Shown here: positions 4,298-63,470 of the stretch, in pieces
Layout of the letters: every line of letters starts with the position of its first letter
Numbering within the stretch: position 1 is the stretch's first letter
IMG/VR virus record: IMGVR_UViG_3300035208_006730
DNA length: 64,000 nucleotides
DNA from: a virus
Lineage: Duplodnaviria; Caudoviricetes
Reading direction: 5' to 3' (one strand)
Program-made: the position numbers and the translations under genes
Notes under the pieces: model-generated
What the model saw: the letters and a program-made list of their open reading frames with translations, nothing else
Told to the model about the DNA's origin: nothing
Databases searched by the model: none

Positions 4298-4299
4298 AA

Positions 4300-31503: not shown

Positions 31504-31506
31504 TCT

Positions 31507-31599
31507 TTACTCGTACTGCCAAAAATTTCCTTCGGCTTTAATGGTAGATCGATCTTCAGGAAGAGCCATAGAAAGATCTGTTGTCCAAATAGAGTCCAT
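31507..31599 (-). CDS. 30-aa ORF or gene remnant
   Basis: TAATG-coupled to the upstream methyltransferase; fills gap. Confidence 0.3.
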   Translation of the reverse strand: MDSIWTTDLSMALPEDRSTIKAEGNFWQYE

Positions 31600-32321: not shown

Positions 32322-32401
32322 CTAGTCTCCTTAGAAGAAAACTAGATTTAGTATATTCTTTATTTTTTTGCCATGGAAGAGCTGGTATTCCTTAATAAGA
32401 A

Positions 32402-32959: not shown

Positions 32960-32962
32960 TTA

Positions 32963-43585: not shown

Positions 43586-43640
43586 GTGTCTTCCTTCTTT
43601 AGAAAGAATAACACATGATTTTCGGGAAAGCAAAAGATAT

Positions 43641-45701
43641 TTAATGAGCTAATGCGGGATGTTTGAAGGATCGAACCTTCTTTTGAAGATCTTCGTAGGT
43701 GATTCCGAGTGATTGACAGATCAAAGAAACAACTCCATAAAGTTCTCCAATAGCTCCAAGGGATAATCCATCAAGAGATTTTCGAGAAACAAATCCGTTC
43801 TTCATTACTCCAATACGTTCAAGATCTTCTTTATGGTATTGAAGAACTTGATCCCATTTTCCTGCCATTATATAGGCTGCATCTTGACAAGCAAGGGCAT
43901 CTTGTTCTTCATCGAATCCACCACCAAGTGCACTACCATCATAAAAAACATCACCATCACCTTGAATTACAAATCTTGATTGACCATTATTTGCTATCAT
44001 AAAAATATTTCCTGAATCTGGCCATGCAGTTCCACCGCCACCACGGTCTGTGTAGATTGCGTTAAAAATAGTGGGACAATAAGCTGTTCCAGAAACAGTA
44101 GTTGTATTTGTATCTCCGTACGAATTGCATTGGAAGGTATTTTCATTACCATTATTGTTAAAAACTTTCATTACAAAGTGAGAGGCAGAAGCCTCACAAT
44201 TTATTACTGTGTCAGTTGGAGCTACTAAAGAGAAAGAATGACCGCATCCTGCATGCCTAATCTCAGCAAATAAATCTCCATCTCCTAGAATAACATCGGG
44301 AATAGATAAGCAAAAACCAGCATCAATGAATGGAACAACAGTCGTTCCTAAAACATTCACTTTTCCTAGAACTAATTGTTGAGTTAATACATCCTCTAAT
44401 TGAGTGCTAAATGTAAGAGTTGAATTAACTGGAGATGTTACATCTGTTGCGTTACATTTTATTTCTCCATATTTAATTGTACTAGCTGCATCATCTTGTC
44501 CATAGAAACAGATTCTACCTTTTTCTCCTATTATTCCAGATACAGTTGTACTTTCTGAATACAAACTTAAATAACCTTGATTTAAATCTGCAATCAAATC
44601 TCCATCTCCCCAAAAATACATTCCATGATCAGTATTATCTTCTAACCCTGTATCGGTGAGAGAAAATTTTAAAGCTAGACTTGAATTTGAATCCAACACA
44701 ATAGTTTCCGCTATAAAACTTACTCCACTAACCGTTGTAGAAGATGAAAGTGATCCACATGAAATTGCGTTAGTCACATCAAGAGAATTATTGACTAGCA
44801 GACTTTCAGAGATTGACATATCTCCTGTAAAGTTAGAGTCTCCATCAACAGTGAGACGATTAGCAGGCGTGTCTGTTCCAATTCCTATGTATCCATTGCT
44901 ACTTTGAATAAATAGTGCATCATTCAAAGTGTCTGATCTAAATCTAATATCCATATCAACTTGATCTGGGTTAATATCTATAGATAAATCAGAATAAGTT
45001 ACAAAGGAATAGTTAGAGTTTGGAAGACCACCATTGTACCAAATACCAACAACTTTACTTGGTTGACAATTAATATAGTAATTTCCCGATGATGTTGTCA
45101 TTGCAAGTTCAAGAACCGTTAATCTATCAGTTATCGAACTATCGAGAACTCCTTGGCCGTCATCATTTAAAGCTGCTCCTGTACCATAGATATCATAAGC
45201 TAGTTGCCAAAGATTAAAGTCGTTTAGATTTATCCTGTAGTCCATTGAGGTATTGTTACTTGTCCCGCCAAAAATTCGATAACCAATTAATTCTTTTTCT
45301 GTTTCCGATAGAATAGCTGATGAAGCTGAAATTAATGTCGTTAGATTCGATTCAACAGTATCTGCGTAGGAATAGAGATCTACTAATTGATCTTTAATCG
45401 TATTGGGTCTAACTTGAGTCGAATTGAAATAGTCTCCTTCTGTTGCGTCTGGGTCTACATAGATAGTTTCTCCAGAAATACCATTGGTAAATGCATCGAC
45501 TTTATCCTCTCCATCTGTAGTTGTGATTCCAGACGGTAAAGAACTTAAAACAAGAACAAGAGAATCATTCCAACTCGCTTGGATCTGAGTCAGATCTGCT
45601 GAAAGTTCAGCTATTGTATCGTTCAATAGAGCAGAAGATGCAGGTCCATTCTTTCTGGAATTTCGTTTGAATAGATTTATAATCAAACTTGTTAATTTCA
45701 T
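43641..45701 (-). CDS. Tail fibre/spike-like virion protein
   Basis: N-terminal helical domain, IGIGTDTP..LTVDG fibre repeat, beta-rich body, chaperone-like C-terminus. Confidence 0.7.
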   Translation of the reverse strand: MKLTSLIINLFKRNSRKNGPASSALLNDTIAELSADLTQIQASWNDSLVLVLSSLPSGITTTDGEDKVDAFTNGISGETIYVDPDATEGDYFNSTQVRPNTIKDQLVDLYSYADTVESNLTTLISASSAILSETEKELIGYRIFGGTSNNTSMDYRINLNDFNLWQLAYDIYGTGAALNDDGQGVLDSSITDRLTVLELAMTTSSGNYYINCQPSKVVGIWYNGGLPNSNYSFVTYSDLSIDINPDQVDMDIRFRSDTLNDALFIQSSNGYIGIGTDTPANRLTVDGDSNFTGDMSISESLLVNNSLDVTNAISCGSLSSSTTVSGVSFIAETIVLDSNSSLALKFSLTDTGLEDNTDHGMYFWGDGDLIADLNQGYLSLYSESTTVSGIIGEKGRICFYGQDDAASTIKYGEIKCNATDVTSPVNSTLTFSTQLEDVLTQQLVLGKVNVLGTTVVPFIDAGFCLSIPDVILGDGDLFAEIRHAGCGHSFSLVAPTDTVINCEASASHFVMKVFNNNGNENTFQCNSYGDTNTTTVSGTAYCPTIFNAIYTDRGGGGTAWPDSGNIFMIANNGQSRFVIQGDGDVFYDGSALGGGFDEEQDALACQDAAYIMAGKWDQVLQYHKEDLERIGVMKNGFVSRKSLDGLSLGAIGELYGVVSLICQSLGITYEDLQKKVRSFKHPALAH

Positions 45702-45710
45702 TGAATGCTC

Positions 45711-48002
45711 CTAAGCTATTCGAATTTTATAGCCACTCAAAAGTGGTGTAGAATCTTCGTCTTCAGTTTCAAATTCCGCTTTCAGCCTCAAGTATTTAAA
45801 CTTTTGATCTACGATTTTCAATTCAATTCTAAAAGTTTCATTTAAACTATCTGATTTATTTTCGTCTATCTTAACAAGAAAAATCATATTGGAATAAAGA
45901 TTAGTTGTGCCAGAAAATGGATCATTGTAGCTTCCAGGATAATCTCTATCTATGGCGAATCTGCCATAATTATCACTAGGAAGGCTATTGAGAAAATCTA
46001 GAATAGGAATTTCATCCATCCTTGTTTCTGCAAAAAGATCAACTCCAGTATAGATCTGTTCAGTAGAATCGAATCCTTCAGGATAAGAGTAACCTTCAAT
46101 TAAAAGTTTATGATTAAAAGGGTAAAGAGTATCTGCGGTAATGAGTTCTTGAAGAGTCTCAATATTTGCCGAAACCTCGAGCCAATTGTCCTTATGAATT
46201 TTAATTAAATGTTCTCCCGTCGCTCCTGTCTCATCGTTCTTTCCAGAAATAATTACTGAGTTACCTCTTTTAGGTTTATCATCGATCCAAAGAAATTGGT
46301 CTCCAATTGAGACAGTCTTACCTTCTGGATTATTGATTCGAATCCAACAAAAATAGAAAGGATCTTCGAATTTCCATCCTCGTTGAATTCCTCTCACTTT
46401 TGAGGTATTTAAAGAACTGTCTAATCCTTGAGCTCCAATGTTTCTCCAAACCTTGAGACTTTCTTTATCGATTAGAAAAAAGGATGGACCTTCTGTTGGA
46501 TCAGAAAGTAGATCAGCAGACTTTGGAATTTTAAACTGATAGGAAAGAATTCTATCATTAGAGTTCACGGGAACATAACGAACTTCATCAGAAGATGAAA
46601 CTGATGAATTAGTCAGATCTCCATTAATGTCGAGATGAATCAGATTGAAGTCAGCTGCTGGACTTTTTTGATCTGCGCCAACTCCCCCACCTACAGGAGA
46701 TGCTATGTAAGAAATCTTTACATCTTCAGTATCTCCATAAACCACAGAACTTAAATCTCCGATATCAAGAACAGAATTGCTTTCTTTATCTTTTCTAGAT
46801 GAAGGATCAATTGCAAACCAATCAGTACTAATTGTAACTGGAACTTCAGAATCATTAGAAATTGTTACAAAATAATGAATGTTCGTTTTATCTTGAATAG
46901 ATTCACACGAATCGAGAGAAAGTCTCGAAAACTGAATTTCTTCTCCCAAAGTATCAACAACTGAAAGAGGTTTTGAAATCAATCGAGGTTTTGGGTCCAT
47001 CTCAGTAGTCGTATCAAAAGCTTCTTCAAAAAATTGAATTCTCTTGGCGCCAAACTCAAAAATAAAACGATCACGGTCTTCATAGTCTGATGTTGCTTTA
47101 GAGAGAAGAAATTTTACGTGGGTCATTGAAGTTTTTGGAAAATAAAAGACACCAACATCAATCACAGTTTGAGTAGGATTAGTTCCGGGTAATTGTGAAA
47201 AGTTATATCCATCATTTGAATACATCGGAGTAATCTGAAGAGATGAACCTTGATTAACCGCCTGAACAATAAAATCTATTCGAGATACACCGATTGGTGT
47301 ATCCGAGATCTTTATTTGCAACTCAGCAGTTATTGATTCGTCTTTTTCAGTTGATAGTCTAACCTGCCAATTTTCGTCTTTATCTGTTACAGCATTCTTC
47401 AGAGATGAAAGGGGTGTTTGCTGAACAATTCCGTTGGACTTCGACGCGATACGAAATGAAATATCTTCATCTTTTATATTTAAACTTAAAGGATGGTGAA
47501 CCCTTGATGAAGGGGCAAGTGTTGCGATGTGAGTTGTTGGGTTAACGTCAATCGTTGTTAGATCTTGATCTATAAGGGAAAGGTCTACAAAAGTATCTGC
47601 AACATAATTAACGTATCCATCTACATCGTTAGTTACGATAATAAGATTAGATACTCTTTCTTCAAGTTTCATTGCACTTGATTCAATTGCTTCAATTTCA
47701 GTTTGCCATTGTTCATGCATATCAATAGAAGTTTCAGTAAGAGATTTCATCTCTGTCAGTAAGGCCTGTAAATCCTGATAGATAGCGTCGATAGTATTTT
47801 TAAACTTACTCTTACTTGATTCTTCGCCGTAAATAACTTTCCATTCACTTGCCAGAAACTGAGGAACAGTAAAATCATTTACATTATTGTATTGGTACAA
47901 AAGAGTTTCGATATCAGAAAAACTAGGAATAATTCCTTGACGTAGTTGGTCCTTAAGATATTCTTCTAATTTGATTTTTCGATATGTAGAGTCGATTGCC
48001 AT
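45711..48002 (-). CDS. Virion/baseplate structural protein (paralog 3)
   Basis: Helical N-terminus, discoidin-like beta domain, ends TPLLSGYKIRIA. Confidence 0.7.
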   Translation of the reverse strand: MAIDSTYRKIKLEEYLKDQLRQGIIPSFSDIETLLYQYNNVNDFTVPQFLASEWKVIYGEESSKSKFKNTIDAIYQDLQALLTEMKSLTETSIDMHEQWQTEIEAIESSAMKLEERVSNLIIVTNDVDGYVNYVADTFVDLSLIDQDLTTIDVNPTTHIATLAPSSRVHHPLSLNIKDEDISFRIASKSNGIVQQTPLSSLKNAVTDKDENWQVRLSTEKDESITAELQIKISDTPIGVSRIDFIVQAVNQGSSLQITPMYSNDGYNFSQLPGTNPTQTVIDVGVFYFPKTSMTHVKFLLSKATSDYEDRDRFIFEFGAKRIQFFEEAFDTTTEMDPKPRLISKPLSVVDTLGEEIQFSRLSLDSCESIQDKTNIHYFVTISNDSEVPVTISTDWFAIDPSSRKDKESNSVLDIGDLSSVVYGDTEDVKISYIASPVGGGVGADQKSPAADFNLIHLDINGDLTNSSVSSSDEVRYVPVNSNDRILSYQFKIPKSADLLSDPTEGPSFFLIDKESLKVWRNIGAQGLDSSLNTSKVRGIQRGWKFEDPFYFCWIRINNPEGKTVSIGDQFLWIDDKPKRGNSVIISGKNDETGATGEHLIKIHKDNWLEVSANIETLQELITADTLYPFNHKLLIEGYSYPEGFDSTEQIYTGVDLFAETRMDEIPILDFLNSLPSDNYGRFAIDRDYPGSYNDPFSGTTNLYSNMIFLVKIDENKSDSLNETFRIELKIVDQKFKYLRLKAEFETEDEDSTPLLSGYKIRIA

Positions 48003-51000
48003 TATAGCTCCTGAGGAATGATCTTCAATGAATAGTCCTTGATAATAGGAGTAAAATAATCTTTCAGTAAAGAAACATCCTCTCTTGTCTCCTGAACATA
48101 ATCATAACTGATTTGATAGCGCGCAGGAAGCAGAGAAGCTAGTTGATCTGGTGTTGCGGTTTCAGAATAGTTTGTAATGACAATGGTTTTTTCATTATAG
48201 TTCACCGTATAGTCGCTCGACTTAACGCTTCTCGCAATGGGATAATCGATCCGAAAATCTGAGTATCGGTATCGACATTCAATTGAAGAAACATCCATAC
48301 TACTAAAAGAAGTCCCTGTATAAATTACTCCATTTTTATAGTCTACAGAATAAAGACCTGAAACAGTTGTTGAGGATGGTCGTTCGTAAAAATAGAAAAT
48401 AGAACCGGGTTCTGTTACTTCCTGATCAACTCGAACAGTTACTGTATTTCCAGATTTATCAATACTGTAATCTCCAACATCATCAAGAGATGCATCTTCG
48501 ATAATAAATATTCCTGAATTTGTAAAACTAACTGTTGCATCAGAATCTGAGGTAATATTTTCTGTTAAAGAAAAGGTTACGTTAGCTGGATAACTACTAT
48601 TCTGTAATGAAGAGATTTTTTCTTCCGTATAGATCAGATTTGATAATTCATCGAGGCCATTCAAGAATGGAACTTCCTCTTGGAAAGGAGAGATCGTTCC
48701 AGTTGTTTCAATGACTAAACTTTTCTTTACAATCGATTGATGTGGCAGTTCAAAATATTTTGTTGGACTACTGATATTCCCACTAGTTTCTAAAGAATGA
48801 TTATAAGGAACTGTAATCCAAGCAGAATCTTTTAGAACGACACTATCGTTTAATTCTCCAACAGTACCCCAATCCCAGTCTTCTTCTTTGAGTTTATCTA
48901 CCTGGGTATATGTATAACTAATAGTTTTTATTGTAGTATTTGGAGATGAAAAATAGATAATTCCATTTTCTTTATCAATTGAATATTTAGATCCTGAAAG
49001 TTCATCAATCCCATTTATAAATGATTGCTCAATATAAGGGGACATACTCGAGGTAATATCTGAGATATTTTTATTTGGAAGTTTAACTATAGTGGTTCCT
49101 TGAGTAATTGCCACTGCTCCGTTTTTTAGTTCACTATAGCGATAAATTGAGATCTGTTTCTTTTCGGCACCAGTAGGAAAAGATAATTGGACTGGAGAGT
49201 TAACTCCATTTATTGGAAAAAGTTTCTCTCTTTCAAAATAAAGAGAGACTACATCTGTATCTTTAGGGGCTTGACCATTAGTATCATTTCCGAAAAACAA
49301 TGTTGGTCCCTCTTCCATTCTCCAATCAATATTGTAGACAGTATCAGAACTTGAATAGTTCGTTAATGCTGATGTAGCTATTGTCCATTTTTTATTACCT
49401 ATAATTAGATTGATCCATTCAGAATCAGGAACTAAGACCGTTTTCCAAAGATTACCACTAGCTTCTTTCTTAGTTGGTCTTTTTTCCCAAATCTTATCCC
49501 AAGCAGGCAATGAGTACTGAGTTCTAGCTTGTCCAGTTCCAATTTTGTATGCAGCTCTTTGAATTCCGCAACTACCAAAACAAGGATCGACAAGTTTGAC
49601 ACTATCTCTAATTGGAGTCTTCTCTAACTTTATTGAATGAGGAGCAATGCGAGGCTGGTCTCTAAATTCTATTTGCTTAGCTGATACGGTATAAAAACCT
49701 TCACTAGTCGAAGTGAAGGCGGTGTCATCTCGTTCTAGAATTGCTTTCCAACGAAGAGACAAAACGGGAATATTTGAGTCAAAAGAATTATTTGAAGCAT
49801 TATTAAAATTGACAATTTCTGGTATTTCAGAAGTGAGACCAGCAAGACCCTTGTCAGTTTGAGGGCGAATAGGAAGCCACGTTATTCCATTGTCTGGAGA
49901 TACAAAATGAGAAATATTGGCAAGAGTAGAAAGTCCACTGGGAGATTGAGTTGCTTGTAAAGAAATTTTAGATACAGGCTGATTAAGACTAATAAGCTGA
50001 GATACAACTTCTCCAATAGGTTTAAAGACTAGAGATCTTATCTCAATATCTCTTATCCCTATTGCATATCTTCGCTTTACTCCTGTAGAGGTATCAATAA
50101 GATATGCTTCAGATTGTGAAAGTATGAAATGGACATATTTAGCTTTACGCGGAGTAAAAGTAAAAAATCCCTGTCCTGCATATTTTGAACTTGATGGAGC
50201 TAAAACAAAAACATTTTCTTCGTCTTCCGTGAGATATCCAGCAATTGGAATATCGTCCTTGACGCTAATAAAGCTTTTCCCATCAAGAGAGGTTTCTATT
50301 GTGTCGATCTTAATGCTAGTTCTTTGTCCAAAATTATTTGGATTAAGTCTAACGTAGTTGATTATCTGAGGATTTCCAAGATTAAGTGTTATATCCAAAA
50401 TCAAGGGCTCATTATTATCTTGAGACTGGAGAATAACTTTTTCGTACTCAAACCAAGTATCTGGGTTATAGTCCGTAATCGTTGAAATATCGTTGTGAAG
50501 ATCTGCATCAAGTTGATAGTTATTTCCAATAATTCCATTAGAATTTGGATTAATAGTTGGTTGATTGTAAATCTTAATACGACTATCTTTTGCTGTATCA
50601 ATAGACAAAGTAACAATACCTTCAGGAGTACTTACTCTACATTGATCTTCATTTAAAAGCTTTGAGTTCAATTCAATTCGATCAGTACTTGTAAAGCTAT
50701 CTCTGACTAAGGTGACTCCTCGAGTTGTTCCTGTATATAACTGATAGTCCTGAGTTAAAGAAAGAATTTTCTTCAGGCGCGCTTGAATTCTACTTGAGCC
50801 TGTAATCGTTGAGTTGAAGTTGGCAAGAACAAGACTCTCGACATTTTCTAATTCATTAAAAATTGTTTCAAGATTGTCTGCAAGATCTCTAAAAGTTGTA
50901 TTAAAATCATCTGCATTAGGTGAATGCCCAACGTGCGGAAGAGATTCTTTATCCAAAACAGGAGTATCAAGTTGTCGATAAAAAGATGAAAGAGTCTTAA

Positions 51001-51133
51001 CGGCCTCATTTAAATACTGTTCTGAGGTATAAAAGTCAGGAGAAGCAATACTGGCTTGAAGAGTACGAGCTAGTCTATCAAGTTTATTTTTAAGTATTGC
51101 AGACTCTTGAGAGCGAAGATATTTGTTAGACAT
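48002..51133 (-). CDS. Virion/baseplate structural protein (paralog 2)
   Basis: Discoidin-like ITDYNPDTWFE..LNLGNPQIINYV; repeated YSID..NG.IY modules; ends TPIIKDYSLKI. Confidence 0.7.
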   Translation of the reverse strand: MSNKYLRSQESAILKNKLDRLARTLQASIASPDFYTSEQYLNEAVKTLSSFYRQLDTPVLDKESLPHVGHSPNADDFNTTFRDLADNLETIFNELENVESLVLANFNSTITGSSRIQARLKKILSLTQDYQLYTGTTRGVTLVRDSFTSTDRIELNSKLLNEDQCRVSTPEGIVTLSIDTAKDSRIKIYNQPTINPNSNGIIGNNYQLDADLHNDISTITDYNPDTWFEYEKVILQSQDNNEPLILDITLNLGNPQIINYVRLNPNNFGQRTSIKIDTIETSLDGKSFISVKDDIPIAGYLTEDEENVFVLAPSSSKYAGQGFFTFTPRKAKYVHFILSQSEAYLIDTSTGVKRRYAIGIRDIEIRSLVFKPIGEVVSQLISLNQPVSKISLQATQSPSGLSTLANISHFVSPDNGITWLPIRPQTDKGLAGLTSEIPEIVNFNNASNNSFDSNIPVLSLRWKAILERDDTAFTSTSEGFYTVSAKQIEFRDQPRIAPHSIKLEKTPIRDSVKLVDPCFGSCGIQRAAYKIGTGQARTQYSLPAWDKIWEKRPTKKEASGNLWKTVLVPDSEWINLIIGNKKWTIATSALTNYSSSDTVYNIDWRMEEGPTLFFGNDTNGQAPKDTDVVSLYFEREKLFPINGVNSPVQLSFPTGAEKKQISIYRYSELKNGAVAITQGTTIVKLPNKNISDITSSMSPYIEQSFINGIDELSGSKYSIDKENGIIYFSSPNTTIKTISYTYTQVDKLKEEDWDWGTVGELNDSVVLKDSAWITVPYNHSLETSGNISSPTKYFELPHQSIVKKSLVIETTGTISPFQEEVPFLNGLDELSNLIYTEEKISSLQNSSYPANVTFSLTENITSDSDATVSFTNSGIFIIEDASLDDVGDYSIDKSGNTVTVRVDQEVTEPGSIFYFYERPSSTTVSGLYSVDYKNGVIYTGTSFSSMDVSSIECRYRYSDFRIDYPIARSVKSSDYTVNYNEKTIVITNYSETATPDQLASLLPARYQISYDYVQETREDVSLLKDYFTPIIKDYSLKIIPQEL

Positions 51134-51134
51134 T

Positions 51135-53105
51135 TTATTCCTCTATCTTACCTGCATCCTGAAGATTAACTGCAAGAAGAAATTCTTTTGTCAGGGGAGA
51201 TAAATTGTCATTTGAACAATTTCTTCTCATGATCACCATTATATAGGAATTCACAGAAGATATCTCACTTATTTTTTTAAACTGAGAAGTTATTACAAGT
51301 TGATCAGTGAAGCTTCTAGCAGATAAATCTCCAATTAAATCAACAAGGAATTGATTCGTTGAACTTTCACTGACCTCTTTTGTTGAAATATTACTTGTAA
51401 TTGGAGTATATGAAACAGTAAAAATATCCCCATCTTTTGGCATTGTAATCAATATTCCAAATTTCATTGGCTTACCACTATTTGGAACATTTTGAGTTAA
51501 AGAAGATTCAGCTGCAGTTAGCGACATCCAACCATCAGAGTCGGTGCTAAGAACTTGGGTTAGCGGATTTGAATCGTTATTTCTGTAAACAATAATATTT
51601 CCAAGAGTTTCATTTGTATAAAAAATAAGCTGACCCGCGTCATTGACTTGTGACGAATTGAAATTATCTGTTAATAGAAGTCTTTCGTGATAAATTCTTT
51701 CTGTTTTCAAAGGTAGAATCGGAACCGTATCTATTGAAACTAAGTTTCCGTTTACGTCGAACAGTTCTCTTATTAACCAATATTCGATACTTCCATAATA
51801 AATATCAGTCGCTGAATATGTTTCGACTTGCTGAATTTGATTCACATCTCCAAGAAGAGATCCTGGTCTAGATTCAGTTGATGTAATACAATAACCTTTT
51901 GAAGGACTATTTACTTTGATAGGGTTTGAAATAAAGATTCCCATATTTTCATATCTATTTAGTCCTACCCATATATTGTCGAATCCAATCTGAAATTTCT
52001 TTCCTGAAAATTTTACTGTATTGACGTTTTCTGTTCCAAGATGTAGAAGGTCAACAACCGCATCGTTGACAACGTCCTTAATTGATAAGTCAGATTCTTC
52101 AACTTGAAAATTTTCCGAAAAACTATTTTCATTGGTAAATACTAATTGGATCTTAGTGGCAATGCTTTTCTTGAGAGAAATTTTTACTCTATGATCTTTT
52201 ACAATTTGGTTAACCGTAATCGTCTCTGGAATACTCGTAGGAGATAATACAATTACATCTGTGAGAACAACTTCAGCTAGAAGTGCTGGTTCAATTTCAA
52301 TGAAGTTTAATAGTTGAGGTCCACCTAAATCTATTTCTATTTTAGTCGTAATACTCGATGGAATTTCTTCTTCAAATAAATATTCAACATTCCAGTAGGT
52401 TCCCTGAGTGCCATCAATAATATTGTGAATGTCGGAATTTTCTGGATTAACCCTTACTCCTGTAGATATTGCTTCATTATCAAAAATCTGACGAATGTCG
52501 GTCAAAGTTAAATAACTTGTTTCACTGGTTGGGAGAGTAAGATATTTCCCAACTTCATCTAAAGATAGATCATATTTGGAAGTAACTGTTTTCTTCGTGC
52601 GCGGATCTAAAAATAGATTTTGTGCTTCAAGACTTCTTCCAAGTCTATTCCCACCTTGACCTAAAAAATTAGAGAATAATGTTCTATCGAATCCTTGTTC
52701 AAAGTTCGTGGCCATTTCATGAACTCTGATTTTCGCTTCTAGATCTGCCAGAGAATGTCTCAAATTTGGAAGAGTCTGATATTTTAGAATCGCCTGATGA
52801 CTTTTCAGAACCGTATTGATTTGATTGGTTTCAAAAAAAGCGATTTCCAAATCATCTTGAATTTTCTCGAGCATAAAGTTATAGGTCTCAATATCAATGG
52901 GATTTCCTTTAATGGCAAGGAATAATCGAAGTAAAGGAGTGATCCTTTTTTGGAATAAATCCTGGATTATACTGTCAATTCCCTTTTTAAAATCGTCGAG
53001 AGATTGGTATTGACCATTTACTTTGTAGTTGTTAACGTCCTTGAGTAGACGATTATATTGATTATTGCTAATTGTCTCATTGAATTTATCTAGATATATT
53101 CCCAT
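51135..53105 (-). CDS. Virion/baseplate structural protein (paralog 1)
   Basis: NIIDGTQGTYW..IDLGGPQLLNFIEI discoidin-like; ends SPLTKEFLLAV. Confidence 0.7.
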   Translation of the reverse strand: MGIYLDKFNETISNNQYNRLLKDVNNYKVNGQYQSLDDFKKGIDSIIQDLFQKRITPLLRLFLAIKGNPIDIETYNFMLEKIQDDLEIAFFETNQINTVLKSHQAILKYQTLPNLRHSLADLEAKIRVHEMATNFEQGFDRTLFSNFLGQGGNRLGRSLEAQNLFLDPRTKKTVTSKYDLSLDEVGKYLTLPTSETSYLTLTDIRQIFDNEAISTGVRVNPENSDIHNIIDGTQGTYWNVEYLFEEEIPSSITTKIEIDLGGPQLLNFIEIEPALLAEVVLTDVIVLSPTSIPETITVNQIVKDHRVKISLKKSIATKIQLVFTNENSFSENFQVEESDLSIKDVVNDAVVDLLHLGTENVNTVKFSGKKFQIGFDNIWVGLNRYENMGIFISNPIKVNSPSKGYCITSTESRPGSLLGDVNQIQQVETYSATDIYYGSIEYWLIRELFDVNGNLVSIDTVPILPLKTERIYHERLLLTDNFNSSQVNDAGQLIFYTNETLGNIIVYRNNDSNPLTQVLSTDSDGWMSLTAAESSLTQNVPNSGKPMKFGILITMPKDGDIFTVSYTPITSNISTKEVSESSTNQFLVDLIGDLSARSFTDQLVITSQFKKISEISSVNSYIMVIMRRNCSNDNLSPLTKEFLLAVNLQDAGKIEE

Positions 53106-53106
53106 T

Positions 53107-55218: not shown

Positions 55219-55227
55219 TTATTTACC

Positions 55228-57900
55228 TTAAGCGTGTGATATTTGTTTCCAGGTTGCAGCAGAAGGATTAGCTACTGTACAGATATGAAATTCTCCATTT
55301 GCCGTTACGTAAAGATCTCCAAGTTGTCCAAAGCCTGGAAGATTATTGTCTGATCCAGGAACAAATCTAATAAGTCCAGTAGCAAGATTCCCTCTAAGAA
55401 TAGCGGCATATCCATGAACAGAAACAGCCCTTAATGCCGCAGAAGTATTTGTTGATGCATCATTGTATGCAGAGATAGCGTCAGAACCAGCTTTTGATTG
55501 TGTTACGTAAACGCTAGTTGCACCACTTGCTGTAACTGATATCGCATTATTTGATACTGCAGTTGAAACTAAAGATATTCCCTTACCTGAACTTGTATCC
55601 AAATCTAAAAGATTTCCGGTTCCAGTACTTCTTACATACATGGTTGCAGCGTTTTGAGCTGTTATATTTAATCCATAACCATCAGTTGAACCTGTACCTC
55701 CAATTGCTGTAATTGCAGAACCACCCTCATTACTCAAACCAGAACCAGTTCCTCCAGTTACATATAATCCAGCTCCTCCAGTTAATCCAGTTCCACCTGT
55801 TAGTTCAAGACCTCTTCCACCAGTTCCCGTTCCACTTCGTGCCCCTCCAAACATAATGTTCTTCCAAGCAGAACCAGAAGATACGCTAGGAGGTAGAACA
55901 TGTAAGAATCCAGTTGGAGCATTTGTTCCAATACCAATTTCACCAGTAGATAAGATAGTAAGTCTTGTTGCGAGTCCAGTTGCTAACTGAAATGTACTAC
56001 TAGAACGAAGACATATTGAACCTAGAAGAGTATCCGTGGTTCCAGTTCCTGCTGCATCTTGACCTGCTGTTGAAACAGGTCCTAGATACAGATTAGAGTA
56101 AGATTCTCCAAATCCTGTACCAATATAAAAATATCTCTTCCAAGTTGGAGAATCTGAATTTACTATTCCTATCTCTTGACCTAATCCAGAAAGATTAACT
56201 AAAAGACTCGAATAGCTAAGAGATACTGCACTAATTTTTGCTCTTTCAGTTACTGAATCTGCTCCTACAGTTAGGTGACAGTCATCAGAACTTCCAGGTC
56301 TATCGATTTGAATAGAGTCAAAATATTTGTCATATTCAATACTGTAACTAGAAGAACCAATACTTCCAAAATAAATTGAATAACTGTCGGCAGTTTGATT
56401 ATTATAAAATGGAACACTAGCTCCTTTGCTAGTTGAGCCAATCAAAAGATCTCCTAAGATGGCATTATTGTAAATATCTCTCATGTATGTATTAGGAGAT
56501 TTAGATCCTGCGCGATGAATGTATCCTAAATGGTCATCAGCTTCCCAGTTTGAGAGATGTAGCTGAACATCCTGACATCCAGTACTAGTTCCATCTGAAA
56601 ATGGGAAAAAAGGCCAAGCTCCAGGTTGATTTACTCCCTGATAGGTTGGGTTCAAAAAGTCTAGATCGTAATGAGCAACGCGCCGAGAAAATCCTGTTTC
56701 AGAAGAATTGTGCTGATGATTTAACATCATCATTTCAAGGAGCATTAATTTTTCAGCATGACTCGTTCCAGTAACAAGAAGACGGATAGTCGACTGATAA
56801 GCTGTAGGAGTTTCCAATGTTGGAGCAGCTGTAGTTCCCGTAGAGTCACAAATAGTATCCAAATCAGTTTGATAAACGGAAGTATAGACTTGAATGCAAT
56901 AGGAATTCTGATTGATCGTTACGCCTGCGTAAGTAGATCCAGTCGGAATACTAAAAACTATTCCATCAAGAACCCGACCGTTCTTTTCTAGTTTAATAAA
57001 TCCATCTGGGATTCTATTCCCAGCAGTAAGATTTGTAACTTGGCTTGGAAAACGATAACGATAGTGAGTTGCAGCTGCAGTACTAACTGGAGCATTAGCT
57101 GATTCTAACCAGAAGAATCTTGGATCTGTTACATTATCTGTACTCGAAAGATTCTCATTTGAGGCGCCAACAACAGGATATTGAAGAGCTCTTTCACTTT
57201 TTAAAGAGAGTCTTTGACGAGGAGGAAGAAAGATATAGTAGTAACCTGCAGTTGCTCCTTTAATTATTTTGCATCCAGTAAATCCTGTAGACTGTTCAAC
57301 TGGAGGTAAAACGTTAGGAGTAAGGTCAAATAGATCTGAGTCAAAAGAAGATGGATGACAAGGCATTGAAGAAGAAAGAATTGAATAAGAAAGATTTGCA
57401 GCCTTAGCCGACATTAGATCGGCAGAAGTAGAATAGAGTCCAAGATATTTATTGGCTCGAGAATCAAAGAACCATGTTCTGCCTGATTGACCGTCAAAAT
57501 TTAAAGGTCCAGTAACAGTTGAAGCTGCAGCTGATACTTTGACATTTGTTGCAGGGAATGGAAGCGGAAGTTCTGTTTTTGAATTGTAAACGGTATCTTG
57601 AGGAGTTCCAACAAGAAGGTTTAATCCAGAGTTAGTAGTCTTATCAAAGATAGGAGAAAGATAATTCGATTCTCCCAAATTCCTTCCTATTGTAGCAATT
57701 TGAAGATGAGCTCTTGTATTGGCAGCGGCTGAAAAAAATTCATCTCCAGCTTGATTCCAAATATCCCCAACTGCACCTTCAATAATCGCCAACCCATTGC
57801 GCGCTTGATCGGCAATAGAGTTTAGTTTATTGGCTACTGGTTGTTCACCATCAATATGGGTAACTCGGATAGGAAATGTCTTCCTGATTTTATCGGTCAT
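55228..57900 (-). CDS. Tail fibre-like protein with Gly/Thr-rich repeats
   Basis: RLTILSTGEIGIGTNAP fibre motif; repeated GG.GL..TGGTG; GQLGDLYV near C-terminus. Confidence 0.7.
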   Translation of the reverse strand: MTDKIRKTFPIRVTHIDGEQPVANKLNSIADQARNGLAIIEGAVGDIWNQAGDEFFSAAANTRAHLQIATIGRNLGESNYLSPIFDKTTNSGLNLLVGTPQDTVYNSKTELPLPFPATNVKVSAAASTVTGPLNFDGQSGRTWFFDSRANKYLGLYSTSADLMSAKAANLSYSILSSSMPCHPSSFDSDLFDLTPNVLPPVEQSTGFTGCKIIKGATAGYYYIFLPPRQRLSLKSERALQYPVVGASNENLSSTDNVTDPRFFWLESANAPVSTAAATHYRYRFPSQVTNLTAGNRIPDGFIKLEKNGRVLDGIVFSIPTGSTYAGVTINQNSYCIQVYTSVYQTDLDTICDSTGTTAAPTLETPTAYQSTIRLLVTGTSHAEKLMLLEMMMLNHQHNSSETGFSRRVAHYDLDFLNPTYQGVNQPGAWPFFPFSDGTSTGCQDVQLHLSNWEADDHLGYIHRAGSKSPNTYMRDIYNNAILGDLLIGSTSKGASVPFYNNQTADSYSIYFGSIGSSSYSIEYDKYFDSIQIDRPGSSDDCHLTVGADSVTERAKISAVSLSYSSLLVNLSGLGQEIGIVNSDSPTWKRYFYIGTGFGESYSNLYLGPVSTAGQDAAGTGTTDTLLGSICLRSSSTFQLATGLATRLTILSTGEIGIGTNAPTGFLHVLPPSVSSGSAWKNIMFGGARSGTGTGGRGLELTGGTGLTGGAGLYVTGGTGSGLSNEGGSAITAIGGTGSTDGYGLNITAQNAATMYVRSTGTGNLLDLDTSSGKGISLVSTAVSNNAISVTASGATSVYVTQSKAGSDAISAYNDASTNTSAALRAVSVHGYAAILRGNLATGLIRFVPGSDNNLPGFGQLGDLYVTANGEFHICTVANPSAATWKQISHA

Positions 57901-57908
57901 TCACCACC

Positions 57909-60900
57909 TCACTGATAAATCCCACTTACTGTATTATGCCATGGATCTAAGAAAACGATACCATTTAAAGCAGAAGCAAGAGTAATTCCAGAAGTTTTTA
58001 ATCTGAACCCAAGAGGTATTACACCTGAAGTAGTTTCAGCTGAAGAAACTTCAACTCTTCCAAGAGTTTCGCTATCAAGACTTCTCGTCCGATCAAAGTA
58101 GTCCTCAGGAGTTTCAGAATTAAACTTGTCAGATTCGATAAGATATTCTTCTTGAAGGTCTAGATCGACAAAAGAGCCACCAGAAATTAAAGAAGCTCTT
58201 TGAGTATTGTATTCTGTTTGATTGAGTGCACGTTGTAAAAGTCCTGACGGTAATGCCGATAAATCATCTGAAATGTAAACGCCATTCATAGAGTCTGGAA
58301 TAGTTATTTCGACAGTAATTTCATTTGAAGAAACCCAAACTCCTCGAGTTTCATTCCACGCTTTAGCTCGAAATTTAACATATCCATTGGTAGCCACAAA
58401 ATAACTTTTGAAATCTCCAGAATTAGTAATGGGATCTAATTCAACATCGTATCTAACAATAGTCGTATCGGAAAGAATTGTGATATTTGAAGGTTGTAAT
58501 ACAGTTACATTTGGAAAAGAACCTGTATGAGGATTAATAACATCTGGTTCTGAACTAGAGGTTAGAACTATCTTTTTAGCCCCAATTGCGATCTCACCAC
58601 TTCCATAGACTGTAGGAGTAGGCAGTTGATTTGCTAAACGATAATTTCCTTCTTCATCTCGCTCTGTTGCAAAATCAGAATAACTAATTTGCTCTTCTAG
58701 AAGGTAGTCCGCATAATAGTCATTCAGCTTATTTACAGGTATTCCAAGAACATCATCTTCTTTAAGAACCTGGTAAAGATAGAGAGGAGAATCAAGAGTT
58801 GCAACTAATCTATCAAAATAAAGATCAGTTGAACCTAGATTGGCTCCAATAATTGCAGTTGCTTTTCCTAAAGAATCAATAGAAGTTGGAGGAGAATAAA
58901 TTGCAAAAGCTTTTCCCTGATAATTTGTAACAGCCGTAATAGATGTTTCGTCTTCTCCAAATGAACCAACTGGAATACCTATCATTTCGAAAATAACTTC
59001 ATGACCTTCTATTAATTCGTCGTCTTCTCCAGTAACATCACAGGTCAAGCGAGAGAAGAGATTTCCTAGCTCAAGAGGTCCAAAAACTCCTAAGGAAGTT
59101 TCTGTTAATTCTGAGGATAAAGTTAGAGATAAAGGTTCTTGATCTTTGTTGCGCAAATGAACAAATCCTTTAGGAGCTATGCCCGTCAAAGGATTAATGT
59201 CAGTTCTAGTCTCTAAGAAATGGTCGGTTGTTTTTTCAACTTCATAATCAACTTGAACTCCACGTTTGTATCTTATCGCAGCTCGATGACCAAGAGAAAG
59301 AAAGTTCTTTGTTTCATAAACACCGCCAAAAGAACGATGTTCAAATGTCGATAAAAATATCGTAGTTGGACTGTCAATATTCATTACGTCTGGAGCTATT
59401 TCTAAATAAACATTTTGAGTAACTACTCCCGAATAAGTAAGAGAACATTCAAACCAATTATAACCAACATCACCACTTGGAATATCATCTACAACCCATT
59501 GAATAGCTTCGCGTGGTTCAACCGTTGTAGAGCTAACTCTAATACCAGAAGAAGTCCATAGATATTCACAGTATCCCAATTGTCCAAGATTAGTAATTCT
59601 AAGTGTTCCAGAAACAGTTAGATCATCTGTGTAAATTTTTATATTATTGCATTCTGATGATGTATCGGAAAATCCTATAAAAAATGAAATTTCATGCATT
59701 ATTCCGCTATTCGAAGCAGTCACATCTCCATAAGCCCAATAATCTTCTGTGAGCCCAAGTGTTGTATCAAAATTAAAAAGATAAACATTAGAACAACCAC
59801 TTGGAGGTAGTATATAATAATCATCTCCCCAGTCTGATGAAGCATCGATTTTTTCATCATTACCAGAACCGCTAGTCCAAGTTAAAGGATCACTTAATTC
59901 GTTTGTATCTGGAGAAGGAGTCGTTGAATCATATTCTTTAAAAGTTCTACTACCAAAAGTTATTTCTCCAATATCAATATCTACTAAACATTCGTATGAG
60001 CTGAGTGTTACTTGATTATCTGTTTGAAGCACTGGTGTCCATTCAGTAATACTCGATTGTACTCCTGAGATTGTTTCCCAGTAGGTATAGATCGATAGAT
60101 TAGAAGAGATGAGTGGCGCAAAATGTGTTTTAAACTTTTGGTTAGCACAACCAGTTCCTGTTCCAAGATATTCATACCAATCCAACAGTCCGCTTACCTC
60201 GGTATCTTCCCAACAATTCCATCGATAGTCGCCATTTAGAATAATCTGAGGAGGCAAAATTCCACTAACAGAAGTGCTCCAATCTAAAATAAATTCAGGT
60301 TCGACCTGCTGAACGTTGGCCCAAATTAAAAGTCCAGTTTCATCTCGAACGTCGAGCATTTCTCCAGAAACAATCGTTCCAGAAAAATCGTCTACTTTTC
60401 TGAATATCTGATCTTCAATAAGAAATCCATTTTCATTTCTAAAATTATGAACAAGGATAGGAATGGTCGGTTTAGGAATTTCACTTAATGTCTTGATTTG
60501 AAAGTTTCCAGTATCTAAAGAATCAGTAAAAAACTCAGTTGCTATACCATCTGAAAATAGATAATGTTCATCTTTATAGATGTAAAAAAAACCATGATTT
60601 ATTTTCGGTAACCATTTTTCAGATTCATTAATTGATTGTTTTTCAAGACTAATTAAAGAAAGATCGTCACCATAACCAATTCCAGATTTCCATTTGGTTT
60701 TATCGGTATTAAAGAGAGATAGATCAAAGATTAAAGGGATAAAAGATTCTTCGTTAACCTCTTCATTTCTTGGCCAAGAAGCAATGTCCCACTTCCATCC
60801 TTCAATTTTGTTTCCTGTTCCAGGATGAGGAACTGAAGTAAACTTCGAATCAAAACCTACAGTTGTATCTATTCCTACAGAATTATAACTGTCTAGAACA

Positions 60901-60929
60901 ATATCAAATCTTTTTAAATAGAGTCCCAT
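57909..60929 (-). CDS. Large virion/baseplate protein with Ig-like segment
   Basis: VDIDIGEITFG baseplate module; Big_1-like GHEVIFE...TNYQGKA; S/T/G rich. Confidence 0.7.
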   Translation of the reverse strand: MGLYLKRFDIVLDSYNSVGIDTTVGFDSKFTSVPHPGTGNKIEGWKWDIASWPRNEEVNEESFIPLIFDLSLFNTDKTKWKSGIGYGDDLSLISLEKQSINESEKWLPKINHGFFYIYKDEHYLFSDGIATEFFTDSLDTGNFQIKTLSEIPKPTIPILVHNFRNENGFLIEDQIFRKVDDFSGTIVSGEMLDVRDETGLLIWANVQQVEPEFILDWSTSVSGILPPQIILNGDYRWNCWEDTEVSGLLDWYEYLGTGTGCANQKFKTHFAPLISSNLSIYTYWETISGVQSSITEWTPVLQTDNQVTLSSYECLVDIDIGEITFGSRTFKEYDSTTPSPDTNELSDPLTWTSGSGNDEKIDASSDWGDDYYILPPSGCSNVYLFNFDTTLGLTEDYWAYGDVTASNSGIMHEISFFIGFSDTSSECNNIKIYTDDLTVSGTLRITNLGQLGYCEYLWTSSGIRVSSTTVEPREAIQWVVDDIPSGDVGYNWFECSLTYSGVVTQNVYLEIAPDVMNIDSPTTIFLSTFEHRSFGGVYETKNFLSLGHRAAIRYKRGVQVDYEVEKTTDHFLETRTDINPLTGIAPKGFVHLRNKDQEPLSLTLSSELTETSLGVFGPLELGNLFSRLTCDVTGEDDELIEGHEVIFEMIGIPVGSFGEDETSITAVTNYQGKAFAIYSPPTSIDSLGKATAIIGANLGSTDLYFDRLVATLDSPLYLYQVLKEDDVLGIPVNKLNDYYADYLLEEQISYSDFATERDEEGNYRLANQLPTPTVYGSGEIAIGAKKIVLTSSSEPDVINPHTGSFPNVTVLQPSNITILSDTTIVRYDVELDPITNSGDFKSYFVATNGYVKFRAKAWNETRGVWVSSNEITVEITIPDSMNGVYISDDLSALPSGLLQRALNQTEYNTQRASLISGGSFVDLDLQEEYLIESDKFNSETPEDYFDRTRSLDSETLGRVEVSSAETTSGVIPLGFRLKTSGITLASALNGIVFLDPWHNTVSGIYQ

Positions 60930-61835
60930 TTATTTGCCCCAGTATACAGAAGATACAGAGTGTAGTTCATTAATCAAATCTAATCCAAGAATTGAAGGAA
61001 TAGTATCAATATCTTCATTATACTGATTTGTTACGGTTTCAAAAAGTTTATGTTTAAACGGTTCTTTTTGTAGATTGTGAAGAATAACTGGACTCGCCTG
61101 AATCATTTTTGGGTCGTCGTAATACCAGTAACCAGCTTTTGATCCTGGAGCTGGAGCGTCCCAACAAACAATTACTCCGTGATCAAAATCAACCCAATAT
61201 TGACCAGCATGCAAGACCAAGTTTTCTGTAGCAACTCTATCGTTCAGATTCGGACTAACAAGATTAAACGTTCCTGGAATGATATGATCTTCTCTTAGTT
61301 GCACTCTATTCGAAGAAGTTGAGACATCTTCTGAGATAACAAGACCTGCGGTATTCTGATTAAAGATACATTCAGATCTCATCCACCGATCAGCAGTTGA
61401 TTCTAGAGTTGCAGTAAAGTATGGAGTAGCATTAATCGTATCGACCAGACCACCAAGAAACCATTCTGAAGCAGTTCTTATGTGTCTATCTATCTCGAGA
61501 TAAACTTCGTAATTTTCTGGATCAACATTCGAAATTAAATAGACCATATTGTCGTCAAATTTAATGGCCGGAGCATCAAGAAGATACTCTCCATCAGAAT
61601 CTTTTGTGCATTCTATTGTCATTACGTTAGAAATAGATAATCCTAATTCTCTAGTGATACCGTAAATTAAACCAAGATATGTTGAGTTTGCCTTATTGAC
61701 TCGAGAATCGAGAAGTCGTCTTTTATATTCCCTATTTGTTTCGCCTTGAAGTCTCTTCACATTCAGAATCAGATCTCCATGTTGATCTAATTCATTGTAA
61801 ACATTATGAAGTTGTGGCGTAAAAGTTTGAACCAT
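60930..61835 (-). CDS. Baseplate wedge-like protein
   Basis: LDQHG...RLQGETNREYKRRL...ST..GL pattern; YWVDFDHGVI module. Confidence 0.65.
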   Translation of the reverse strand: MVQTFTPQLHNVYNELDQHGDLILNVKRLQGETNREYKRRLLDSRVNKANSTYLGLIYGITRELGLSISNVMTIECTKDSDGEYLLDAPAIKFDDNMVYLISNVDPENYEVYLEIDRHIRTASEWFLGGLVDTINATPYFTATLESTADRWMRSECIFNQNTAGLVISEDVSTSSNRVQLREDHIIPGTFNLVSPNLNDRVATENLVLHAGQYWVDFDHGVIVCWDAPAPGSKAGYWYYDDPKMIQASPVILHNLQKEPFKHKLFETVTNQYNEDIDTIPSILGLDLINELHSVSSVYWGK

Positions 61836-61865
61836 TATTATCTCCCAACCACTAGAATAACACGC

Positions 61866-63470
61866 TTACGGAAGAACTGAAATGCTTTCGTAGGGCTCTC
61901 TGAGAAAAATCTTTTTATTTTCAAAGTCTATCATCATTACGTCATGGTGAGTATTGATTTGGAAAAATCCAGAAGTTGTTTCTACCCAAAGACGTTGGTC
62001 AGAGTCAAAAGTAATTCCAGTGGGAGTTCCAAGTAATCCAGATACAGTTGTTAGATCAAAAGACTTGAGAGCGACCTTTAAATCAATAATGAATCCACGT
62101 TTTTGACGAAGAAGAGATCCATCATTTAGATAGACCTCAAAACTGATAAAATATTCTCCAAGTTGATTTGGTTCAAATACGAATGGAGAATCAACTTGAT
62201 ATCGATAACTGTCTGTATAGTTCCAGTCATCTGTAACAAAGGTAATTGTATCTCCACCTAGAATGCCCGACTGAGTTCCATCTGGACAGTCAAGCCAAAC
62301 ACGATACCGATCAATTGGATAAAACTGATCTGGATTTATAAACTGAACCGTTACTGAATCTCCACGAGCGATGTGATAGAAGTCAGCAACAATCTCATGT
62401 CTTGAATCCTGATCTATTTCGTTCAGAGCATCAGTATCTTCTATCATGGTTAAATAATTATCAAAGACATAAAGTTTGGATGCGCTCAATCCCCAAATCC
62501 AATCCGAAAATGGTTGCTGAGCAATATCTAAAACATTGATGTTATTGCTGGATTCGTCAAGAAGTTCAAATTGTATTTCAGTGTAAAGACTAAAAATACC
62601 ATCAAGCATTTGTCGAACGTCATCTGTTGAGTATTTAATATAGTTTAGAAAACTTGTAGACCCAGAAGTAACTCCCCAAAATGTATCTATCTTTTTTCGT
62701 TGGTCTGAATAGGAAATGTTCCAAATATCGACGTATGGACTGCCATTAAAATCTGCTGAAACTACATCGATTAGAACTCCTGAGGGCATATCAAAACAGT
62801 CAACTTTGTAGACCGTATCCCATTCCTTCTGGGTTCTTTGCTTCATGTCCCAAGGAAATGGAATCGTTTCTTGTTCGAGAGTTCCTTTTCTTGTCTTTCC
62901 TGTGATCTGAACAAGTGGGCGTCGAAAAATTTCTTCATCATCGACTCTAATATACTGTTCTCCACCGACACAATCAACCCACAGATAATTGGGAATAAAA
63001 GAAGTAACTGTACCTGAAAATGGAGCATCCTCAATATCTGAACTACTTAAAATCGTATAGGTTCCGGTAGCAATATCTCCAATAGAAATACGATCTGGAA
63101 GATGGGTATACCAAAACTCTTCAAGATTATTTTTTTCTGCTAGAGATATTTGATAATAACTCCCATCGAGTAGACCACTCGCTGTAGGGGCTTCGTCGAC
63201 TTCATTAAATGGGTCAAGACTATTCGTTGAAAATTCAAAATCTAAACCGAGATCGACTCTATAGATCCAATCGATTTCATTGAGATTTGCGGTAGTAAGA
63301 TGAAGATTAGCACTATTCCTAATAATTTCTTTTTCAAGCTTTTCTGTAGGAACTGCAATAGAGTTCAAAAGACGATGACCCACAGACTGTTCATCATTCT
63401 GAACTTTTGACCAATAAGGGAATACATTGGCCATCTCTCTTGTGACAGGAGATAATCGTTTAGACATCAT
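61866..63470 (-). CDS. Virion/baseplate structural protein (ORF open to 63557)
   Basis: GAGGGA RBS before MMSKRLSP; acidic and beta-rich; follows the baseplate J-like gene. Confidence 0.7.
   Translation of the reverse strand: MMSKRLSPVTREMANVFPYWSKVQNDEQSVGHRLLNSIAVPTEKLEKEIIRNSANLHLTTANLNEIDWIYRVDLGLDFEFSTNSLDPFNEVDEAPTASGLLDGSYYQISLAEKNNLEEFWYTHLPDRISIGDIATGTYTILSSSDIEDAPFSGTVTSFIPNYLWVDCVGGEQYIRVDDEEIFRRPLVQITGKTRKGTLEQETIPFPWDMKQRTQKEWDTVYKVDCFDMPSGVLIDVVSADFNGSPYVDIWNISYSDQRKKIDTFWGVTSGSTSFLNYIKYSTDDVRQMLDGIFSLYTEIQFELLDESSNNINVLDIAQQPFSDWIWGLSASKLYVFDNYLTMIEDTDALNEIDQDSRHEIVADFYHIARGDSVTVQFINPDQFYPIDRYRVWLDCPDGTQSGILGGDTITFVTDDWNYTDSYRYQVDSPFVFEPNQLGEYFISFEVYLNDGSLLRQKRGFIIDLKVALKSFDLTTVSGLLGTPTGITFDSDQRLWVETTSGFFQINTHHDVMMIDFENKKIFLREPYESISVLP

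Follow-up and report, generated by a model that had tools for sequence, protein, structure and literature searches.

A T-x-S-G motif enriched in the structural proteins of a large phage: a candidate glycosylation sequon for neighbouring glycosyltransferases

We analysed a stretch of 64,000 nucleotides (the window, whose numbering is used throughout) that corresponds to bases 28,522-92,521 of the linear 158,879-bp virus record IMGVR_UViG_3300035208_006730 from the IMG/VR database, the completeness of which is estimated at 83%. The window encodes RecA, the alpha subunit of DNA polymerase III and a DnaG-type primase, the last two being interrupted by inteins. Between positions 43,641 and 63,557, the minus strand holds a long series of large structural genes, hereafter called the block, with matches to the virion-protein families 19683, 21108 and 21059 of PHROG. 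The present analysis concerns the short motif T-x-S-G (x standing for any residue), carried by six of the nine block proteins, and the glycosyltransferase (GT) genes located immediately downstream.

All nine genes lie on the minus strand and are designated below by their lower coordinate. The richest carrier is 57909 (57909-60929), a 1006-residue chain of beta-sandwich domains with seven T-x-S-G, at residues 286, 438, 459, 498, 835, 966 and 1000. The last motif-bearing gene, 43641 (43641-45701), encodes a 686-residue outer structural protein with sites at residues 203, 323, 386 and 535 (window positions 45084-45095, 44724-44735, 44535-44546 and 44088-44099, respectively), three of which read [ST]-T-T-V-S-G. 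Conservation of this protein in relatives is confined to about its first 200 residues. The remaining 480 residues or so, including the three [ST]-T-T-V-S-G copies, had no match among 5.8 billion proteins and IMG/VR, a behaviour that would be expected of a swappable receptor-binding end. In 48002 (48002-51133), a 1043-residue virion structural protein matching PHROG 21108 and, weakly, an F5/8-type-C domain, sites are found at residues 871 and 923 (48512-48523 and 48356-48367). The 703-residue structural protein 53107 (53107-55218), which has a weak fn3-like match at its C-terminal end, carries three sites at residues 495, 608 and 654 (53725-53736, 53386-53397 and 53248-53259). Four sites each are present in 55228 (55228-57900), an 890-residue structural protein rich in Gly, Ser, Thr and Ala (residues 89, 718, 769 and 790, none of them TVSG), and in the structural protein 61866 (residues 95, 398, 474 and 497). 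For the latter gene, the mechanically called open reading frame (ORF) starts at a TTG at 63557, whereas the ATG at 63467 is the start of all homologues and of an identical protein in the databases. This ATG is likely the true start, and the residue numbers given for 61866 refer to the resulting 533-residue protein (61866-63467). No T-x-S-G occurs in the 763-residue virion structural protein 45711 (45711-48002, PHROG 19683), nor in the structural proteins 51135 (51135-53105, 656 residues) and 60930 (60930-61835, 301 residues, PHROG 21059).

A megablast search of the block against GenBank phages returned no match, no cultured phage being similar at the DNA level, and tblastn searches of GenBank phages with 43641 and 57909 were equally negative. 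The only block protein with matches in cultured phages is 48002, for which 19-25% identity was found with the Bacillus jumbo phages 0305phi8-36, WH1, Edson and KLEB27-3.

The tetrapeptide TVSG occurs nine times in the block: three times in 43641, twice in 53107, twice in 57909 and once each in 48002 and 61866. These numbers all agree with the hand count of a preliminary description of the window made from the sequence alone, whose end coordinate for 61866 (63470) also fits a start at the ATG. That description considered TVSG to be confined to the block, which is correct for the window, its other 47 ORFs containing none; two more are present in the 158,879-bp genome as a whole, both in structural genes beyond the window. 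T-x-S-G was counted 24 times in the six block proteins and 3 times in the remaining 47 ORFs. The residue following the Gly is V, I, L or F at 18 of the 24 sites, in line with the description of more than 20 sites usually preceding a hydrophobic residue. All the residues that it listed at position x are present, although the list was incomplete, TGSG occurring too. In 57909 its approximate count of Ser-Gly against Gly-Ser pairs proved exact (21 and 7).

We compared these counts with those of shuffled block proteins. In 2000 composition-preserving shuffles the expected numbers were 0.23 for TVSG and 3.9 +/- 1.9 for T-x-S-G, against 9 and 24 observed, and the highest count reached by any 4-mer was 6. 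In 1000 dipeptide-preserving shuffles, TVSG was expected 0.65 times (maximum 6) and T-x-S-G 5.4 +/- 2.3 times (maximum 14), the highest count of any 4-mer being 7. No other 4-mer is as frequent in the block as TVSG, and its count of 9 was reached by no 4-mer in the 3000 shuffles. The excess, for which the preliminary description had proposed a k-mer enrichment analysis, withstands both controls; it is real and stronger than could be demonstrated by hand.

The excess is also specific. The single-residue variants SVSG, TVTG, TISG and TVSN occur once each in the block, against nine TVSG, and the degenerate patterns number 24 for T-x-S-G, 4 for S-x-S-G, 9 for T-x-T-G, 1 for T-x-N-G and 2 for T-x-D-G. 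Thr is found two residues ahead of 38% of the 63 Ser-Gly pairs of the block; for the remaining proteins of the genome this proportion is 7% (structural) and 5% (non-structural). Thr at this position is 4.6-fold above background, V, I and S being at or below 1. Outside the block T-x-S-G is at expectation, with 10 observed against 6.6 expected in the other structural proteins (18 thousand residues) and 6 against 5.3 in the non-structural proteins (26 thousand residues); in the latter, no avoidance of the motif was seen. All three fixed positions of T-x-S-G therefore matter, and within this genome the signal is restricted to the block.

Codon choice at the 24 sites mirrors the overall usage of the block and includes both Ser codon families. 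The three codings quoted in the preliminary description (ACT GTT TCT GGA, ACG GTT AGT GGA and ACA GTA AGT GGG) are all present, and its view that selection acts at the protein level rather than through DNA duplication agrees with this ordinary usage. Because site codons follow normal usage, a DNA-level signal was rejected. We also aligned locally the 35-residue flanks of the sites, the motif being masked, and compared them with random windows of the same proteins. The mean alignment score was 21.6 for site flanks and 21.9 for random windows. Since the flanks are unrelated, the motif is not the core of a hidden or dispersed repeat or of a shared paralogous domain.

One known domain signature deserves separate mention. 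The fn3 domain has a recognised signature, T-[ILV]-[ST]-G-L, located where strand E ends, and its five-residue pattern is the same as that of the motif studied here. The lone fn3 match in the block is sub-threshold, spans residues 606-674 of 53107 and covers 2 of the 24 sites; at the other 22 no fn3 domain was detectable. An aromatic residue is found 6 to 8 positions past the Gly at 8 of 23 sites (hand count), compared with about 28% expected. Fitting two sites only, and with no T-x-S-G in the fn3-rich proteins of 0305phi8-36, a generic fn3 signature was rejected as an overall explanation. Neither is a generic beta-hairpin turn supported, T-x-N-G and T-x-D-G not being raised.

The structural context of the sites was read from the secondary-structure assignment of two AlphaFold models, those of 61866 (533-residue form) and of 57909. 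The model of 61866 has a mean pLDDT (predicted local distance difference test) of 83. In it, a strand begins with TASG 95-98 right after a Pro-ended loop, TQSG 398-401 lies across a loop-to-strand junction, TVSG 474-477 inside a ten-residue loop, and TTSG 497-500 makes a two-residue hairpin turn. For 57909 the mean pLDDT is 76, and the model is confident over about residues 70-330 and 545-970. Here TISG 286-289 is placed in a five-residue hairpin loop, TNSG 835-838 in a twelve-residue loop and TTSG 966-969 at a loop-to-strand junction. Residues 330-540 form a lineage-specific insert of about 210 residues, with pLDDT below 50, that is absent from the relative G001 described below. In total, seven confident sites are modelled in loops, hairpins or strand starts and four further sites have low confidence. 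The models thus place the confident sites in or next to loops, within ordered regions and in local contexts of several kinds. This only partly matches the exposed turns anticipated in the preliminary description: in these two predicted models the confident sites do not form a buried repeat, but their contexts are mixed. When both models were compared with solved structures using Foldseek, only matches of low TM (template modelling) score to generic beta-sandwich chains were obtained.

We then considered the protein families of these two carriers. An exhaustive HMMER search of a library of 1.84 billion proteins recovered 260 homologues of 57909, from which 149 representatives clustered at 50% identity (113,364 residues) were used for the statistics. 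These representatives contain 391 T-x-S-G and 61 TVSG, the expected numbers being 68 (a 5.8-fold excess) and 4.8, respectively. T-x-N-G, T-x-D-G, T-x-T-G and T-x-S-N are all close to 1-fold; V-x-S-G (3.3-fold) and I-x-S-G (2.4-fold) are raised in this family, although neither is raised across whole blocks. The sites are spread over 138 alignment columns, 82 of them private. The motif is present in at most 21 sequences at any column, and never in more than a third of those that a column contains. Homologues lacking it at the recurrent columns have N-V-D-T, D-L-D-D or S-x-S-G, and these columns look like polar-hydrophobic-polar-turn-hydrophobic positions, as would be expected in an ordinary turn. 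In the 61866 family, P-T-[VA]-S-G at residues 94-98 is nearly invariant in thirteen homologues, T-[TQ]-S-G near 497 is found in 6 of the 13 and G-T-x-S-G near 398 in 4. Because a few 61866-family sites are conserved while most sites turn over, the motif population is mixed, with a conserved minority.

The GT9-family glycosyltransferase gene (42497-43633, minus strand) lies 8 bp downstream of the last motif-bearing gene and on the same strand. It is followed on this strand by two GT4 glycosyltransferase genes (38854-42500), the first of which (39954-42500) is intein-interrupted and the second of which occupies 38854-39957, then by a LAGLIDADG endonuclease and by sugar-nucleotide genes (30391-38087). 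The last group includes an intein-bearing GDP-mannose 4,6-dehydratase, a DegT/DesI-type aminotransferase, two methyltransferases, a PseH-type GNAT acetyltransferase, a GH130-like propeller, a WbqC protein and an ORF of 275 residues; among them only the dehydratase has a homologue in G001. The GT9 matches Pfam PF01075 with E = 2.6e-10, and its orthologues share a C-x2-C...C...C cluster near the C-terminus, of a kind that may occur in other GT9 enzymes. A tblastn search of cultured phages with the GT4 at 38854-39957 mostly matched annotated glycosyltransferases of Streptomyces and Arthrobacter phages, at 22-24% identity.

Several insertions were observed in and around these genes. Four window genes contain inteins with LAGLIDADG domains: those of the DNA polymerase III alpha subunit (10317-15107), the primase (26366-30091), the GDP-mannose dehydratase (36051-38087) and the GT4 at 39954-42500. 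The free-standing LAGLIDADG endonuclease (38077-38853) is located between the dehydratase and the second GT4. Among relatives, the GT9 of L017 has 653 residues, with a large insertion, probably another intein, where the other orthologues are contiguous, and a GT4 of L028 (851 residues) is likewise of intein-bearing length. The GT9 of G013, a complete relative of 194,631 bp, has 659 residues (L025:18926-20905) and resembles two tandem GT9 domains. Most relatives also encode a protein of 331-332 residues between the last fibre gene and the GT9 (L024:18044-19042, L019:17854-18852, L018:18672-19667), which matches the Pfam family Volactin (PF25216) with E-values down to 2.5e-65. This family is named after an archaeal actin homologue; no such match was found in the record of the window phage, estimated to be 83% complete.

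The distribution of motif and transferases was followed across related genomes. G001 is a complete 188,653-bp relative whose amino-acid identity is about 30% and whose genes, among them those of the dehydratase, the two GT4s and the GT9, are arranged in the same order. Its block contains 4 TVSG and 13-14 T-x-S-G; two window sites only align with a T-x-S-G of G001, about ten sites being G001's own. A profile scan of IMG/VR yielded twelve more distinct relatives, and the blocks of 11 of them, L030 being the exception, could be completed. With 10-kb flanks, which lacked the orthologues of 57909 and 61866, some relatives appeared unenriched; the excess became visible after adding these genes. All 11 completed relatives exhibit a T-x-S-G excess, with z-scores of 1.8-9.1, and none of the 13 relatives, G001 and L030 included, falls below z 1.8. 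In the pooled blocks of the 11, T-x-S-G was counted 133 times against 41 expected and TVSG, the top 4-mer, 30 times against 3. In G001, L017 and L024, TVSG is the top or joint-top 4-mer. The excess in relatives is concentrated in the 57909 and 61866 orthologues. Of the sites in the window, about one third share a column with at least one relative, the other two thirds or so being private. In a tree of three concatenated block proteins, the lineages with the strongest excess (the window phage, L024, L021, L018 and G001) do not form one clade, and the weakest (L028, L025, L023 and L030) are mostly on long, deep branches.

The GT9 was found in every relative whose sequence extends to that region and appears to be a core gene of the clade. 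Wherever the sequence extends far enough, the GT9 and the two GT4s follow the block on the same strand. In three distantly related Bacillus jumbo phages, tblastn detected no counterpart of the GT9 and none of the GT4 encoded at 38854-39957. Their structural blocks (7.3-8.0 thousand residues) contain 2, 2 and 4 T-x-S-G against 1.7, 3.4 and 2.4 expected, and one TVSG in total; no T-x-S-G is present in the fn3-rich fibre proteins gp163, gp165 and gp166 of 0305phi8-36. This comparison favours the suggestion of the preliminary description that the motif tracks the GT cluster, insofar as all 14 clade members show an excess and the three phages without detected transferases are at baseline. It consists of a single deep split, however, and the excess is graded within the clade.

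Taken together, these data are better accounted for by selection on a linear motif than by a single structural role. We favour this explanation because three positions are specified, turn variants of similar or better quality are not raised and the signal is restricted to the block, and because the motif recurs in the clade with positional turnover, in varied local structures and with unrelated flanks. T-x-S-G followed by a hydrophobic residue, with V preferred at x, would then be a short linear motif of the outermost proteins of baseplate and tail fibres, which selection at the protein level keeps because something reads it. The GT9 and the two GT4s encoded downstream are the likeliest reader. 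Since they form the only candidate reader tied to the block both by position and by phylogenetic distribution, we prefer to regard T-x-S-G as a putative sequon for the neighbouring glycosyltransferases. This is in our opinion the best single explanation, although a tentative one. These enzymes would add sugar to the Ser, or to both the Thr and the Ser, on exposed loops, in the cytoplasm and on folded proteins before assembly, and part of the glycan would be supplied by the phage's own GDP-6-deoxy-amino-sugar pathway. We infer the action on protein, the modified residue and the sugar used. The more precise version, in which the GT9 reads a true O-glycosylation sequon and the two GT4s extend the glycan with a phage-made modified 6-deoxy-amino sugar, is more doubtful.

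Several observations weigh against a sequon. The GT cluster could build a glycan for a different target, protein being a putative acceptor. The GT9 matches models of the lipopolysaccharide heptosyltransferases I-III weakly, far below thresholds, and a phmmer search of all solved-structure sequences, TibC included, gave no hit at E <= 0.01. Clade members differ in the strength of the excess (z from 1.8 to 10.5) and five-fold in motif density, although the GT9 is constant where the sequence reaches it. The contrast between phages with and without transferases is confounded by ancestry because it amounts to one phylogenetic split. Three of the seven sites of 57909 (438, 459 and 498) fall in the low-confidence insert. 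Finally, the N-V-D-T and D-L-D-D alternatives at the recurrent 57909 columns are those of an ordinary turn, P-T-[VA]-S-G is nearly invariant in the 61866 family in the manner of a structural residue, and so are sites 608 and 654 of 53107 placed, at consensus positions of the weak fn3 match.

These last three points, together with the modelled location of sites at loop-to-strand junctions and hairpins and the beta-sandwich nature of the carriers, would rather suit a structural preference, in which an unmodified T-x-S-G-hydrophobic segment ends a loop and starts a beta-strand in beta-sandwich domains. Some lineages would then favour it over Asn or Asp turns, for example for stability or so as to avoid the labile Asn-Gly and Asp-Gly bonds. 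We consider this explanation a serious rival, although somewhat less probable than a sequon. The variety of local contexts does not fit one structural role shared by all sites. Furthermore, the generic turn formers T-x-N-G and T-x-D-G are not raised, and over the blocks as a whole the position two ahead of Ser-Gly shows no excess of V or I. Baseline counts were also obtained for the remaining large, beta-rich structural proteins of these genomes and for the fn3-rich fibres of 0305phi8-36, and motif density varies five-fold among orthologues that have the same fold.

The evidence for selection on a linear motif would serve equally well for a reader other than a glycosyltransferase, such as a Ser/Thr kinase or another modifier, a chaperone, a protease or a host-surface ligand. 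Unlike the transferases, however, no such candidate is tied to the block by position or conservation, and we know of no phage protease or chaperone motif resembling T-x-S-G, so that we hold this alternative to be improbable. Inheritance of a few sites combined with the post hoc choice of the best 4-mer is very improbable and already largely refuted: the motif was indeed chosen after the sequence was read and about a third of the window sites share a column with a relative, but no 4-mer reached 9 in the 3000 shuffles, independent relatives at about 30% identity have the same top 4-mer mostly at other positions, and the flanks are unrelated.

How does the proposed sequon compare with characterized systems? 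Actinobacteriophages are known to glycosylate virions with transferases of their own, and virion glycosylation is also known in chloroviruses; protein heptosylation by GT9-type enzymes is known for autotransporters. In the latter, TibC, a GT9-type enzyme, heptosylates Ser and not Thr in the folded TibA adhesin, the mapped sites including the Ser of a ...Q-N-S-G-G... segment (PMC4358343). The TibC/AAH enzymes acting on TibA/AIDA-I resemble the phage proposal in that a cytoplasmic GT9-related enzyme modifies many Ser of a folded, beta-rich surface protein and in that the enzyme gene adjoins the substrate gene. The differences are that no sequence match between TibC and the phage GT9 was obtained at the above threshold and that the substrate TibA is a beta-helix of 19-residue repeats, whereas the phage candidates are beta-sandwich tail proteins. 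TibC is further characterized by an N-terminal beta-barrel, a beta-hairpin thumb, a dodecameric assembly and a four-Cys iron finger, the phage GT9 being compared with it by sequence only. No ADP-heptose pathway was seen in the 64-kb window. TibC may therefore be taken as a precedent for the proposed chemistry, not as a proof for this phage.

In actinobacteriophages, the reported glycosylation targets are capsid and tail-tube proteins with Ser/Thr-rich C-terminal extensions and, to our knowledge, no short sequon has been defined. The likeness to the window phage lies in the phage's own glycosyltransferase genes located within or beside the structural genes; the difference is that the candidates here are folded baseplate or fibre proteins with a four-residue motif. 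For such actinobacteriophage genes a capsid target has been suggested (PMC11256854). The preliminary description had instead drawn an analogy with the xylosylation of proteoglycans, which shares a Ser-Gly dipeptide acceptor. Proteoglycan xylosyltransferase, however, is located in the eukaryotic Golgi and has a preference for flanks that are acidic and disordered. Those of the phage sites are ordered and hydrophobic, and there is no related enzyme here. This analogy adds nothing testable and TibC appears to be the closer precedent.

We know of no short acceptor motif defined so far for virion glycosylation in tailed phages. If confirmed, T-x-S-G would add a novel form to these known kinds of glycosylation, in which a clade of large phages carries a short, defined acceptor motif on the folded proteins of tail and baseplate. 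It would make glycosylated phage proteins predictable from sequence alone and would place a protein-acting GT9-type enzyme outside autotransporter adhesins. Some large phages would coat their receptor-binding machinery with sugar, with a bearing on host range, stability and antibody recognition; sequon positions in this glycan coat of the host-recognition apparatus would turn over as in the glycan shields of enveloped viruses. Should the sequon reading be wrong, the motif would be a clade-specific sequence signature lacking an explanation.

Two minor observations concern proteins other than those of the block. A 675-residue protein with a Laminin_G_3 match is encoded among the replication genes of the window (4249-6276); it contains 8 Ser-Gly, 1 Gly-Ser and no T-x-S-G, and its homologue in the relative L026 (786 residues, 31% identity) sits within the fibre block. 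In the relative G002 (L021:16989-21407), two extra tailspike-like proteins are encoded between the last fibre orthologue and the GT9, one matching a right-handed beta-helix and the other being pectate-lyase-like, and one of the two has four T-x-S-G.

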